Source: Candidatus Woesearchaeota archaeon (GTDB lineage: Archaea; Nanobdellota; Nanobdellia; Woesearchaeales; BS150m-G63). From it: a stretch of DNA of 64,000 nucleotides. Position numbers and translations under genes: made by a program. The stretch is from positions 25,061 through 89,060 of the forward strand of contig JADHVD010000001.1 of assembly GCA_016784165.1 (NCBI GenBank), given 5' to 3'. Of this stretch, positions 31,603-64,000 are shown piece after piece (the first letter of the stretch is position 1; every line of letters starts with the position of its first letter). Below the pieces are notes generated by a model. It did no database searches and had not been told where the DNA came from. It worked only from the letters and a program-made list of their open reading frames with translations.

Positions 31603-31659
31603 TCTTTAAGCTTAAAGATTATTGCAAGGGTAATCTTTAACAAAAAGACTATAGTCTTT
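31603..31659. promoter_or_regulatory. Two perfect 16-bp palindromes (candidate operators) in the pta/trmB divergent region
   Basis: TCTTTAAGCTTAAAGA (31603-31618) and AAAGACTATAGTCTTT (31644-31659). Confidence 0.5.
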
Positions 31660-31802
31660 AATCCAAAGGCTTCAAAGAAACCTTTAAATATTAGTTGTGT
31701 TTATTAAATTATAACTTATTAAGAGTAGTATCACACTTTAATTTTTTATTTAAGTGAAAATCATGATTAAATAGTAAAAAAGAAAGAGAGGTAAAAATTA
31801 AA

Positions 31803-32621
31803 ATGATAGTCAAAGAAGAATTTTTAAGTAGGTTGAGGAGATATTTTTCATTAAACCTTTATGAAGTAAAGATTTGGACTGCTTTGTTGTCTAGGGGAGT
31901 TTCTACAGCGGGAGAGTTATCTGATATAGCCAATGTACCTCGAAGTAGAAGTTATGATATTCTTGAAAGCTTAGAAAAAAAAGGATTTGTTGTATTGAAA
32001 TTAGGTAAACCAATAAAATATATGGCAGTTCCACCTACAGAAGTAGTTGTAAGAGTAAAGAAAAATATGCACGAGGAAATGAAAACTAAAGTTGATAGGT
32101 TAGAGAATTTAAAGGATACTGACGTATTAAATGAATTAAATACTTTACATACCCAAGGTATAGAATTAGTTGCGCCTGCTGATTTAAGTGGTTCTTTGAA
32201 AGGAAGACATAATTTATACAACCATCTTGAAATGACTATCAGAAATGCTGAAAAATCAGTTGCTATTCTGACTACACCTCAAGGATTGATGAGAAAAGTA
32301 GAAGGACTTAAACCCATTCTTGAAAAAGTAAAAAAGAGGGGAGTGGATATTAAAATTGCCGCTCCTTTGGAAAAAGAATGTTGGGGGGCTGTTAAAGATA
32401 TCTCAAGTGTTGCAGAAGTTAAACACACAGACCATAAAGGGAGATTTGCAATAGTGGATGGTAAAGAATTAATTTTCATGGTTTTAGATGATACTGAAGT
32501 TCATCCAACTTATGATGTAGGTATTTGGGTAAACACGCCATTTTTTGCAACAGCATTAAATGATCTTTTTGAAGTTGCATGGAAAGGGATGACTCCATCC
32601 GATCAGATTCTTAAAAAATAA
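31803..32621 (+). CDS. TrmB-family regulator / TrmBL2-like chromatin protein
   Basis: LNLYE.K.W.ALL, ELSD.ANVPRSRSYD.LESLEKKGF HTH, C-terminal PLD-like domain. Confidence 0.9.
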   Translation: MIVKEEFLSRLRRYFSLNLYEVKIWTALLSRGVSTAGELSDIANVPRSRSYDILESLEKKGFVVLKLGKPIKYMAVPPTEVVVRVKKNMHEEMKTKVDRLENLKDTDVLNELNTLHTQGIELVAPADLSGSLKGRHNLYNHLEMTIRNAEKSVAILTTPQGLMRKVEGLKPILEKVKKRGVDIKIAAPLEKECWGAVKDISSVAEVKHTDHKGRFAIVDGKELIFMVLDDTEVHPTYDVGIWVNTPFFATALNDLFEVAWKGMTPSDQILKK

Positions 32622-61741: not shown

Positions 61742-62680
61742 TTATTCTAATAGTTCTACACTATCTATTCTTCCGTCGCCGTCAAGGTCAAATCCTTGAA
61801 CAGCTATTGCAAAAGTTTTTTGATTGGAGAATCTTTGAGTGATTAGTTTATGGTGTCTTGTTAATGCAAGTACTGCTGCTTTTGTACCCAGATATCTTAT
61901 TCCTGCTAAAACAAGTATTTTGTTTTCTGGGTTATAGGGGTTTGGAATTCTTGCTATAAAACCACAAGCTTCATCAGTATAGTGTTTTCCTGTTTTTTCT
62001 GAGATTATCCCATAAGGTTTTTTGTCTGAGAATTTTATTGGAAGCATATCATTTACTTTTGAAACTATAAGGTTAGTTATAGGTCCGCCCACAAGAATTA
62101 AGTTGTTTTTCTTTTTGGTTGCTATATCTACATCTAAAACCACACTGAATTTTTTTGAAATTGAACTATAATATCCCAGAAATAATGCTAAATCAATTGC
62201 ATAGTGGCCATCTCTTGCTCTTGCTTTTTGAGGTCCGTGAGGGTCTGGACTTCCTACAACTATGTTGCAGTTTAGCTTGTGATTTTTTATGAAAGGGTTG
62301 AGGAATTCTTTTATTTCTTTGTCTTTTTCTTCATGGATTAATTTATCTATATTTTTCCAATTTTGACTAAGAGATATCACAAAGTTCATTTCTTTCGGTC
62401 TATATTTTTTTGCTACTGTGCCCCGTATTTCTTTTTTTTCAACTAATTCAAGAATTCCCGAATTCAGAAGTTGTTTTATGTGGTAATATACTTTTTGTTC
62501 ATGTAATTTTAATTTTTTAGCTAGTTCTGCTGGATACATTGGTTTTTTTGCTAAAGTTTCTAATATGTTGATTCTTAGAGGGTGATCTATTAAACGCATT
62601 GCAGAAGGATTGTGAAAAATAAAAGCAGAATCATAAATTAATTCGTTTTCTTTTTCTTTTATTAAATAGTTTTTTACCAT
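61742..62680 (-). CDS. ArsR-like HTH regulator fused to a C-terminal alpha/beta domain
   Basis: HP.R..IL..L, ELAK.L..H.Q.VYYH...L; NLILVGGP..N; terminal DLDGDG. Confidence 0.75.
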   Translation of the reverse strand: MVKNYLIKEKENELIYDSAFIFHNPSAMRLIDHPLRINILETLAKKPMYPAELAKKLKLHEQKVYYHIKQLLNSGILELVEKKEIRGTVAKKYRPKEMNFVISLSQNWKNIDKLIHEEKDKEIKEFLNPFIKNHKLNCNIVVGSPDPHGPQKARARDGHYAIDLALFLGYYSSISKKFSVVLDVDIATKKKNNLILVGGPITNLIVSKVNDMLPIKFSDKKPYGIISEKTGKHYTDEACGFIARIPNPYNPENKILVLAGIRYLGTKAAVLALTRHHKLITQRFSNQKTFAIAVQGFDLDGDGRIDSVELLE

Positions 62681-62948: not shown

Positions 62949-63647
62949 ATGGCAACTAAAATTGTAATCATGGCTGCCGGCAAAGGTACAAGAATGATGC
63001 CTTTGACACGGTATGTTCCAAAGACTTTAATCAATGTTGGGGGAAAACCATTCTTATATTATTTGATAAAGAATGTGTTAAAAGCAGGATATACAGAGAT
63101 AGGTATTGTTGTAGGTTATAAAAAAGAGAAGATTCAAGAATTTCTTAAAGATTTTGGGTTTAAGGCAAAATTAATGGAACAAAAGAAAAGACTTGGTACG
63201 GGACATGCACTTAAACAAATTAAGGGGTTTGTTGAAGGGGAAGATTTTGTTGTTATTGGTGGAGATAACTTGTGGTCTACTAATGATTTGAAAGCTATGC
63301 GTAGTAAGAGTAAATTTTGTTATATTGCTGGAATGGAACATCCAAGTCCTGAAAAATATGGTGTGTTGTTAGGGGAAGAAGGGATTCTGAAGAAAATAGT
63401 TGAAAAACCAAAGAGTTTTGTTGGTAATTTGATTAATGTTGGATTGTACAAGTTTACTAAAGATATTTTTGATGCTCTGGATAAAATAGAAAAATCTGAG
63501 CGAGGGGAATATGAATTGACTGATGCAATTTCTTTATTGGCTTCTCAAGGAAAAGTAAAAGTTATGAAACTTAAAGATTATTGGTTAGATCTTGGTTGTT
63601 TAGATGATATACCTATAATTGAGCAATTTTTAACTAAAAAGGTGTAG
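62949..63647 (+). CDS. Sugar-phosphate nucleotidyltransferase (GlmU/RmlA-like NTP transferase)
   Basis: MAAGKGTRM.PLT...PK, LGTG.A, VEKP, RGEYELTD, W.D.G. Confidence 0.92.
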   Translation: MATKIVIMAAGKGTRMMPLTRYVPKTLINVGGKPFLYYLIKNVLKAGYTEIGIVVGYKKEKIQEFLKDFGFKAKLMEQKKRLGTGHALKQIKGFVEGEDFVVIGGDNLWSTNDLKAMRSKSKFCYIAGMEHPSPEKYGVLLGEEGILKKIVEKPKSFVGNLINVGLYKFTKDIFDALDKIEKSERGEYELTDAISLLASQGKVKVMKLKDYWLDLGCLDDIPIIEQFLTKKV

Positions 63648-63657
63648 GGTTGATAAC

Positions 63658-63738
63658 ATGTGTGGAATTTTTGGTTACAAAGGCAAAAAGACTACGTCTT
63701 TAAGCCCTTTAAGGGATTTTGTTGAGGAGATGATTTAA
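63658..63738 (+). CDS. Mini-ORF 1, [26 protein letters not shown]
   Basis: ATG to TAA, 26 aa; translation not demonstrated. Confidence 0.4.
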   Translation: MCGIFGYKGKKTTSLSPLRDFVEEMI

Positions 63739-63739
63739 C

Positions 63740-63820
63740 ATGTGTGGAATTTTTGGTTACAAAGGCAAAAAGACTACGTCTTTAAGCCATTTAAGGGATT
63801 TTGTTGAGGAGATGATTTAA
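63740..63820 (+). CDS. Mini-ORF 2 (P to H variant)
   Basis: Preceded by the same GAGGAGATGA SD-like sequence as glmS. Confidence 0.4.
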   Translation: MCGIFGYKGKKTTSLSHLRDFVEEMI

Positions 63821-63821
63821 T

Positions 63822-63902
63822 ATGTGTGGAATTTTTGGTTACAAAGGCAAAAAGACTACGTCTTTAAGCCCTTTAAGGGATTTTGTTGAGGAGATGATTT
63901 AA
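63822..63902 (+). CDS. Mini-ORF 3
   Basis: Same SD-like sequence; its stop lies 1 nt before the glmS ATG. Confidence 0.4.
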
Positions 63903-63903
63903 T

Positions 63904-64000
63904 ATGTGTGGAATTTTTGGTTACAAAGGGATGAAGAACTCTTTTTCTGTAGTTTTTAATGGTCTCAAAGATTTAGAATATAGGGGTTATGATTCATGGG
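63904..64000 (+). CDS. glmS: Glutamine-fructose-6-phosphate aminotransferase (runs off the window)
   Basis: MCGIFGY...[14 protein letters not shown], the GlmS N-terminal signature. Confidence 0.9.

Follow-up and report, generated by a model that had tools for sequence, protein, structure and literature searches.

Why should a gene be preceded by several tiny open reading frames (ORFs) that copy its own first codons? This question is raised by a 64,000-nt stretch of DNA from a Candidatus Woesearchaeota archaeon (assembly GCA_016784165.1, contig JADHVD010000001.1, positions 25,061 to 89,060 of the forward strand), which we refer to as the window and whose numbering we use. Close to its 3′ end an 82-nt unit is repeated in front of glmS, and each repeat holds a complete mini-ORF that begins like GlmS itself. 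A preliminary description of the window proposed that the repeats are a leader or decoy-peptide array that tunes hexosamine supply, or else a neutral product of slippage. We favour a different answer and give it a probability of roughly 55%: the array would be a locally amplified copy of a hairpin element, here called E, that is restricted to the genus and found at gene starts, and the mini-ORFs would be by-products.

The assembly under study (G000) was compared with two genomes of the same genus, G001 and G002. G002 is unpublished, and three kinds of result rest on it: the empty glmS site, its two hairpin copies and three further empty sites.

The array in front of glmS

The only array that Tandem Repeats Finder reported here runs from 63654 to 63929, with a period of 82 nt, 3.4 copies, 98% matches, no indels and a score of 531. 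The features that matter in what follows are:

63654-63735, 63736-63817 and 63818-63899, + strand: the three units of the tandem array, followed by a partial unit (63900-63929) that is the true glmS start; from Tandem Repeats Finder, junction contigs and depth
63658-63738, + strand: mini-ORF 1, 26 codons from an ATG, codons 1-9 identical to those of glmS
63740-63820, + strand: mini-ORF 2, 26 codons from an ATG, with P17H
63822-63902, + strand: mini-ORF 3, 26 codons from an ATG

These coordinates bear out most of what the preliminary description said of the layout. The 82-bp unit does occur three times between a nucleotidyltransferase gene and glmS, and each of the three 26-codon mini-ORFs stops 1 nt upstream of the next ATG, the last of these being that of glmS at 63904. 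As had been stated, glmS returns to the frame of copy 1, because 246 nt (63904 minus 63658), or 82 codons, separate the first ATG from its own. The reported differences between copies are present too: CCT, CAT and CCT at 63706-08, 63788-90 and 63870-72, and the bases C, C, T and T before the ATGs (63657, 63739, 63821 and 63903). The mini-peptides of copies 1 and 3 are identical, and that of copy 2 has H in place of P. Two inverted repeats had been described in each unit. The palindrome AAAGAC-TAC-GTCTTT is indeed found once in every copy (63687-63701, 63769-63783 and 63851-63865), but CCCTT-T-AAGGG is broken in copy 2, as it is in G001. With at most one mismatch, the first palindrome has four matches in the window against 0.53 expected, a count reached in none of 100 shuffles.

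The unit contains a 52-nt insert of non-glmS sequence flanked by 30-nt direct repeats; the duplicated start region comprises 4 nt, the ATG and eight codons. It has no other occurrence in the whole assembly (865 kb, 26 contigs, 30% G+C), and the mini-peptide matches no Pfam family. It is not CRISPR-like either, as the entire unit repeats at 98% identity and there are no unique spacers. We rejected the idea that the insert duplicates glmS codons 10-26: compared with glmS nucleotides 27-226 it aligns no better than shuffled sequence, the alignment score being equalled by 134, 57 and 122 of 1000 shuffles in three species.

Unit number in independent data

Could the array be an artefact of assembly, in which one unit was falsely tripled? 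The stretch is present in marine metagenome runs from several studies, and we compared four runs from four studies (X1, X5, X6 and X7), each assembled into contigs of the k=31 type. Two studies contain at least two units: X1 and X5 each have a 57-nt contig that equals window positions 63709-63765 with 0 mismatches and includes the B-TAAC-ATG junction (B being the end of a unit), which a single unit cannot give. The depth of these unit contigs is 14.8 in X1 and 10.9 in X5, against 7-10.6 and about 5.4 in the flanks, that is, about 1.4-2 times as high. A 112-nt contig from a third study, X6, covers one unit plus 30 nt (63818-63929) at a depth of 37.5, against 11 and 15.3 in the flanks; this ratio of about 2.5-3.4 suggests approximately three units. 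In X7 the flanks are covered and nothing else. Independent runs uphold the array, with junction contigs in two studies and raised unit depth in three.

Some observations do point towards an artefact. A metagenome contig of the same species, L032, carries a single unit, which may be true variation or assembly collapse. No contig in any of the four runs spans the array, as contigs of the k=31 type are unable to do so. None of the four runs shows the CAT variant of copy 2; contigs drop minor variants. Set against these are the junction and the raised depths, and k-mer assemblies tend to collapse tandem repeats more commonly than they expand them. We therefore consider a false expansion highly improbable.

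The unit in related genomes

The comparison of glmS upstream regions that the preliminary description had in mind reveals a unit number that does vary: three in G000, one in G001 and none in G002. In G001, whose GlmS is 89% identical, a single unit reading ATGAGTGGA... encodes a 26-aa peptide and is followed by TAA, T and the glmS ATG. In G002 (GlmS 72% identical) the glmS ATG comes directly after the nucleotidyltransferase stop. Of 401 genomes of the order that were searched, only G000 and G001 contain the whole unit; the 398 outside the genus lack it. A search of public collections for an exact 24-mer of the unit, which would overlook more distant carriers, returned only two contigs: the metagenome contig L032, which belongs to the same species and has a single unit, and one from a genome, equal to the G001 sequence.

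The units of G000 and G001 are very similar, with four differences in 82 nt. By comparison, these genomes differ at 38-39% of four-fold sites (glmS, 75 of 197; nucleotidyltransferase gene, 29 of 74), and sliding 82-nt windows of the flanks have 74-91% identity. The binomial probability of so few differences is about 2e-12 at the four-fold rate and 0.004 at an overall rate of 15%, and by the former value the unit is far too similar to be a neutral relic of the common ancestor. One of the four differences lies in the hairpin loop and two break the second palindrome. Three of the four are non-synonymous in the mini-ORF (C2S, T13R and P17R), so that, with one relative compared, the mini-peptide is not conserved, even at Cys2. 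Judged from these sequences, the constraint on the unit, if any, is not on the peptide.

A family of hairpin elements

If the insert is not a piece of glmS, what is it? We propose that it holds a copy of E, whose core is CAATAAGAC-loop-GTCTTAAAG, with a 6-bp stem, a loop of 3-16 nt and an 18-nt consensus. G000 has 27 matches to this consensus: 15 exact, three with one mismatch and nine with two. Twenty Markov-1 shuffles gave means of 0, 0.1 and 0.9 in these classes, or about 1.0 per genome at up to two mismatches. The exact pattern is found 15 times in G000, five times in G001 and twice in G002, and never in the other 398 genomes of the order; a reversed control pattern gave one match. The 27 matches fall into 13 loci, of which none lies within an ORF of at least 80 aa and eight are tandem arrays. 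Where there is a downstream gene, E is mostly co-oriented with it (10 of 12 loci). In an alignment of 23 family members that leaves out glmS, 99.3% of the stem cells pair, loops are 3-14 nt long, and there are one compensatory change and two G-U pairs. A genome-wide scan for tandem repeats also returned other arrays, of 48-93 nt units, with a similar hairpin.

We saw no longer terminal inverted repeats of the kind that would mark a miniature inverted-repeat transposable element or other transposon, and the direct repeats that flank E are about 11, 18 and 30 nt long at three loci. This variation argues against a transposase with a fixed target duplication. In open-access text we found no description of an element like E or of an upstream ORF (uORF) of an archaeal glmS, and a search of open-access text with the motif GTCTTAAAG returned primers and unrelated titles only. 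Among 2.9 million viral contigs, 29 have one exact match to the pattern each, a count without a control and hence not interpretable.

Further tandem hairpin units, of 57-93 nt, are located at C15:1-224, C16:1-220, C15:5324-5490 and C18:58173-58317. Hairpin repeats probably break the assembly, as two arrays sit at reverse-complementary contig ends.

Arrays at other gene starts

A good illustration of how E behaves is given by the arrays that abut other genes. For four arrays the distance from the array end to a start codon is 21-35 nt, and every unit in them repeats the start region of the gene concerned. These are the arrays of glmS, a Prefoldin_2 gene, a gene without a Pfam match and a 2-Hacid_dh (2-hydroxyacid dehydrogenase) gene. 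The last three are:

C24:17153-17353: prefoldin array, 3.3 units of 52 nt directly before the Prefoldin_2 gene
C24:2778-3075: array of about five 54-nt units before the gene without a Pfam match
C12:74670-74782: dehydrogenase array, 2.4 copies of a 48-nt unit before the 2-Hacid_dh gene

The three share one build: the start-codon region, the hairpin, a spacer and the start-codon region again, in tandem. The prefoldin units even contain a 16-codon mini-ORF, MDNKTFEVLKPHFMEN, that is formed from the first codons of the gene and followed by TAA, 1 nt and ATG. In the 54-nt and 48-nt arrays the pseudo-start meets a stop after three codons. The genes downstream of the arrays are functionally unrelated.

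Orthologous sites are often empty. The G001 and G002 orthologues of the prefoldin, unknown and 2-Hacid_dh genes have no unit, and three G001 genes have single units where the G000 orthologues have none. Between G000 and G001, four arrays are confined to the former, three single units to the latter, and two sites are common. At the 2-Hacid_dh gene the relatives have GAGGTGA, a Shine–Dalgarno sequence, and an ATA or TTG start, and G000 has the array and an ATG. An element upstream of S19e is common to G000 and G001; its stem has been kept and its loop and flanks have diverged. As far as such sequence comparisons reach, the gain and loss of units is recent and orthologous sites are fluid.

Does the glmS unit belong to the family?

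Each glmS unit contains a hairpin core, and a fourth, lone copy of the same variant lies elsewhere in the window:

63684-63704, + strand: hairpin core of unit 1, CAAAAAGAC-TAC-GTCTTTAAG, 16/18 of the consensus; covariance model (CM) E-value 1.8
63766-63786, + strand: hairpin core of unit 2, pattern match; CM E-value 0.37
63848-63868, + strand: hairpin core of unit 3, pattern match; CM E-value 1.8
31641-31663, + strand: lone flipped-variant hairpin, CAAAAAGAC-TATA-GTCTTTAAT, the best CM match in the window, E-value 0.094

The glmS hairpins are three of the nine two-mismatch matches, and in them both mismatches concern the sixth stem pair, where T:A has become A:T, a compensatory flip. This pair is also changed elsewhere: it is G:C at another locus and A:T again at 31641-31663. 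The setting of the glmS units is that of the family as well, in that they are intergenic, co-oriented and in tandem, with the start region repeated on both sides. Taken together, the statistics of the pattern, this flip and the common architecture make it likely, though not proven, that the glmS unit belongs to E.

The lone hairpin at 31641-31663 is flanked by divergent genes, of which the one at 31803 begins 140 nt further on.

Several points weigh against our answer and should be taken together. A CM built from the 23 members without glmS (R1) gives the glmS units only 16.8-19.9 bits (E-values of 0.37-1.8), and in a search of the whole window with filters off they rank 3, 6 and 7 of 49 matches. 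The pattern, the flip and the architecture had been spotted by eye before they were tested. The sequence 3′ of the glmS hairpin, CCCTTTAAGGGATTTTGTTGAGGAGATGATT, is unlike the common spacer NNN-CATTTT...AAAACTnAAA, and where other arrays have NNN-CATTTT ... AAAACTnAAA-ATG the glmS unit has CCCTTTAAGGGATTTTGTTGAGGAGATGATTTAAY. The shared element upstream of S19e has kept its stem only, unlike the near-identical glmS unit. From a by-product evolving neutrally since the split from G001 one would expect far more than four changes in 82 positions, given 38-39% at four-fold sites; the glmS unit is therefore either under constraint at the nucleotide level, which favours a function, or a recent arrival from one lineage in the other. 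Finally, we have identified no enzyme or mechanism that would insert E.

Initiation, promoter and folding signals

What could the units do for expression? Two kinds of candidate signal were found around them:

63725-63734, 63807-63816 and 63889-63898, + strand: Shine–Dalgarno (SD)-like AGGAGATGAT, 5 nt before the ATGs of mini-ORF 2, mini-ORF 3 and glmS
63618-63639, + strand: T/A-rich promoter-like stretch (TTTTTAACTAAAA at 63627-63639), position weight matrix (PWM) score 3.9, 98.6th percentile of random positions

The preliminary description had noticed an SD-like site before each next start, and it is a strong one. The motif AGGAGATGAT is complementary at 9 of 10 positions to the 3′ tail of the 16S rRNA, GGATCACCTCCT (from C23), a level reached by one of 430 confident starts of this genome. 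The predicted duplex has -12.1 kcal/mol, against a median of -3.1, and is matched in strength by 1.4% of the confident starts. Across these 430 starts, TATA-like hexamers are most frequent at -31..-28; SD four-mers, present at 104 of the starts, have their maximum at -12/-11.

Counted from the first ATG, the promoter-like stretch occupies -40..-19 and falls inside the nucleotidyltransferase gene, at its 3′ end. The PWM by which this end of the gene is predicted to be promoter-like was built from 325 starts without an SD and is weak, with at most 0.2 bits per position. We rejected a promoter within the glmS unit itself, where the score is -4.9 (11th percentile of random sequence). The other arrays score at the 72nd-85th percentile, and CTTAAA lies at about -29..-24 of the ATG in three arrays, where the TATA-like hexamers of the genome peak.

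Folding of the RNA is no better than that of shuffles, with z = -0.20 for one unit and z = -0.36 for the 321-nt leader. An Rfam cmscan of 3276 nt around the array (L001), at E-values up to 10, gave two chance C/D snoRNA matches only and no glmS ribozyme.

A proposed origin of the array

How could such an array have formed? We suggest that E came to rest a short way into the 5′ end of glmS and that the start region was directly duplicated at the same time. The arrangement is undisturbed in G002, and the sister species G001 has one unit. Unequal recombination or replication slippage between the 30-nt direct repeats would then have expanded the unit, here to three; since such repeats flank the 52-nt insert, the unit number can be changed by either route. 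The glmS gene would be transcribed together with the upstream nucleotidyltransferase gene, or from within its end, with the units as a 5′ leader, and ribosomes could load at every AUG. Because each unit carries an SD 5 nt before the next AUG, glmS would keep an identical, strong initiation context at any unit number, and any effect that unit number may have on glmS output would probably be modest. The mini-ORFs would be by-products of the duplicated start codon, perhaps translated into a peptide without a role.

Our guess at the first A-E-A unit (start region, element, start region) is that it arose by two template switches guided by microhomology. One switch might have taken place where the first codons are rich in AAGA and the other at the A-rich start context (...TAAnATG), and such a double switch would explain a duplicated stretch that always runs from the start context to the hairpin arm. 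The native junction resembles the hairpin arm at 7 of 9 positions at two loci, and less at others.

If E is amplified at gene starts in this way, short hairpin cassettes repeatedly settle there, recreate the start codon behind them and expand, which would be a cheap route to replace or multiply initiation signals. The strings of tiny ORFs that they leave will be missed or over-interpreted by gene callers. Furthermore, tandem 5′ mini-ORFs that copy the N-terminus of a gene need not regulate that gene.

A bolder version of the idea, which we regard as tentative and rather doubtful, is that E is a new kind of archaeal mobile cassette that inserts at first codons, duplicates the start, brings initiation signals with it (an SD at glmS, and at other loci a TATA-like box at about -29..-24 of the ATG) and expands into arrays of variable copy number. 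Were this true, a small marine archaeon that has few regulators could use the arrays as heritable dials of expression or to rewire promoters and ribosome-binding sites. Selection, or the recent exchange of a useful module, would then account for the near-identity of the glmS unit between two species (4/82 against 38% at neutral sites).

Weighing the alternatives

Is the array instead a dedicated leader of glmS, as the preliminary description would have it? The mini-ORFs would then be translated serially, and termination-reinitiation or ribosome queuing according to unit number would tune GlmS. The geometry is suggestive, as every mini-ORF ends 1 nt before the next AUG and all AUGs but the first are preceded, at 5-nt spacing, by an SD that ranks in the top 1.4%. 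Such strong SDs make it plausible that the mini-ORFs and glmS are translated from a single transcript. The unit is also conserved between G000 and G001 beyond neutral sites (4/82 against 38%), and its number varies among genomes. However, the step from translation to control specific to glmS does not hold up well. An identical architecture stands in front of unrelated genes, where two of the sister arrays offer only 3-codon pseudo-ORFs, the peptide changes freely (Cys2 to Ser included), which also speaks against a decoy, and there is neither a signal of alternative structure or excess folding nor an Rfam match. The initiation context of glmS is the same with one unit or three, so the number need not matter, and the congener G002 manages without any. 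We consider a dedicated leader, or any array specific to hexosamine supply, unlikely. The array might also be a local accident without function and without a repeat family behind it, in which an insertion or duplication took place long ago where glmS starts and was expanded to three units by later slippage. The 30-nt direct repeats would ease slippage, the CM scores of the unit fall short of significance for the family, and the 3′ half of the insert is unlike that of the other arrays. Slippage, the neutral process named in the preliminary description, indeed fits the expansion from one unit to three, but it does not account for the origin of the unit, since the insert is not a copy of glmS and the four differences in 82 nt contradict neutral decay since the split from G001. 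Moreover, about one match with up to two mismatches is expected per genome, so that one inside a given 52-nt insert is unlikely; a compensatory flip together with an A-hairpin-A tandem build as at three other loci is unlikely by chance, and so strong an SD is improbable in random sequence. We do not expect this account to be right.

A further alternative is that the hairpin is a signal acting in cis on RNA or DNA, bound by a genus-specific factor or serving as a terminator, insulator or promoter module, and that the array multiplies it. The family has features that would suit such a role. Its stems are kept while loops vary in sequence and length, with one compensatory change and two G-U pairs in 23 members, its elements all lie between genes and for the most part point in the direction of the gene that follows, three arrays have CTTAAA at the position given above, and the glmS unit is conserved at the nucleotide level. 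Against this, the glmS unit scores poorly as a promoter and the other arrays are middling (the values are given above), there is no excess folding energy and no Rfam family, and we found no candidate binding protein. We judge this reading very unlikely. An amplified copy of the hairpin element E, with mini-ORFs as by-products, remains the reading we prefer.

Comparison with known systems

Among the known repeats closest to E are the bacterial REP (repetitive extragenic palindromic), BIME and REPIN sequences, which are likewise short hairpin repeats, intergenic, often clustered or in tandem, restricted to lineages and conserved in the stem. A duplicated start region of the following gene is not a feature of REPs, however, and the host here is an archaeon. 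REPs are also spread by a REP-flanked Y1 transposase, the REP-associated tyrosine transposase, and we rejected such an origin for E: GC-rich hairpins of an unrelated kind flank the sole Y1 transposase gene of the assembly (PF01797, 100 bits; C13:10526-10990), and the hairpin motif had no match when contig C13 was loosely scanned for it.

This region (C13:10324-10990) holds a single IS200/IS605-type Y1 transposase gene (154 aa) with its GC-rich hairpin flanks. It adjoins a 61-aa fragment that resembles the start of a type I methylase subunit, a broken hsdM-like gene, and is probably a foreign insertion.

The location in the 5′ region of glmS recalls the bacterial controls of this gene, the glmS ribozyme and GlmY/GlmZ. 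These are bacterial, and there is no relevant Rfam match or structured fold here; they are not involved. With uORFs and leader peptides the array shares short ORFs that end 1 nt before the next AUG and carry its SD, a series of which would allow reinitiation. It differs from them in that peptide and codons are not conserved, alternative structures of the terminator or antiterminator kind are absent, and the unit is not only repeated here but has counterparts of the same build at unrelated genes. Tandem-repeat contingency loci are copy-number-variable repeats at the 5′ ends of genes. The array is similar in being a 5′ tandem repeat whose unit number differs between close relatives and whose unit length is not a multiple of 3, but each glmS unit restores a start codon and an SD, so there is no switching off by frameshift.

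Finally, Correia and ERIC elements and the 'putative mobile promoters' (PMC3575422) are small repeats at, or overlapping, the starts of unrelated genes and can alter their expression. E, to which these kinds are also close, differs from them in having no terminal inverted repeats with a fixed target duplication; any promoter activity is putative, and the profile score of the glmS unit is poor. The part that E copies share is only about 21-45 nt long, under the mobile-promoter criterion of at least 50 nt at at least 80% (PMC3575422). What sets E apart from the known kinds is that the start region is duplicated, that no transposase is associated with it and that its host is an archaeon.

Flanking genes and other observations

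The genes on either side of the array are:

62949-63647, + strand: sugar-phosphate nucleotidyltransferase, 232 aa, Pfam NTP_transferase, E-value 2.3e-40
63904-64000, + strand, continuing past the window to G000:C4:90760: glmS, glutamine-fructose-6-phosphate aminotransferase, an intact 598-codon frame

The name glmS is based on the MCGI... N-terminus and a conserved LEYRGYDS motif common to the relatives, and the gene is the single match in the assembly. The order nucleotidyltransferase-glmS is kept in all three genomes of the genus. Divergent from this gene pair, on the - strand at 61742-62680, is a gene for a 312-aa protein that fuses an ArsR-type helix-turn-helix (HTH_20) to an S-layer-like outer domain (S_layer_C).

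A different tandem repeat, with 50-nt units that are 100% identical, is located at two contig ends, C23:48168-48339 and C18:1-99.

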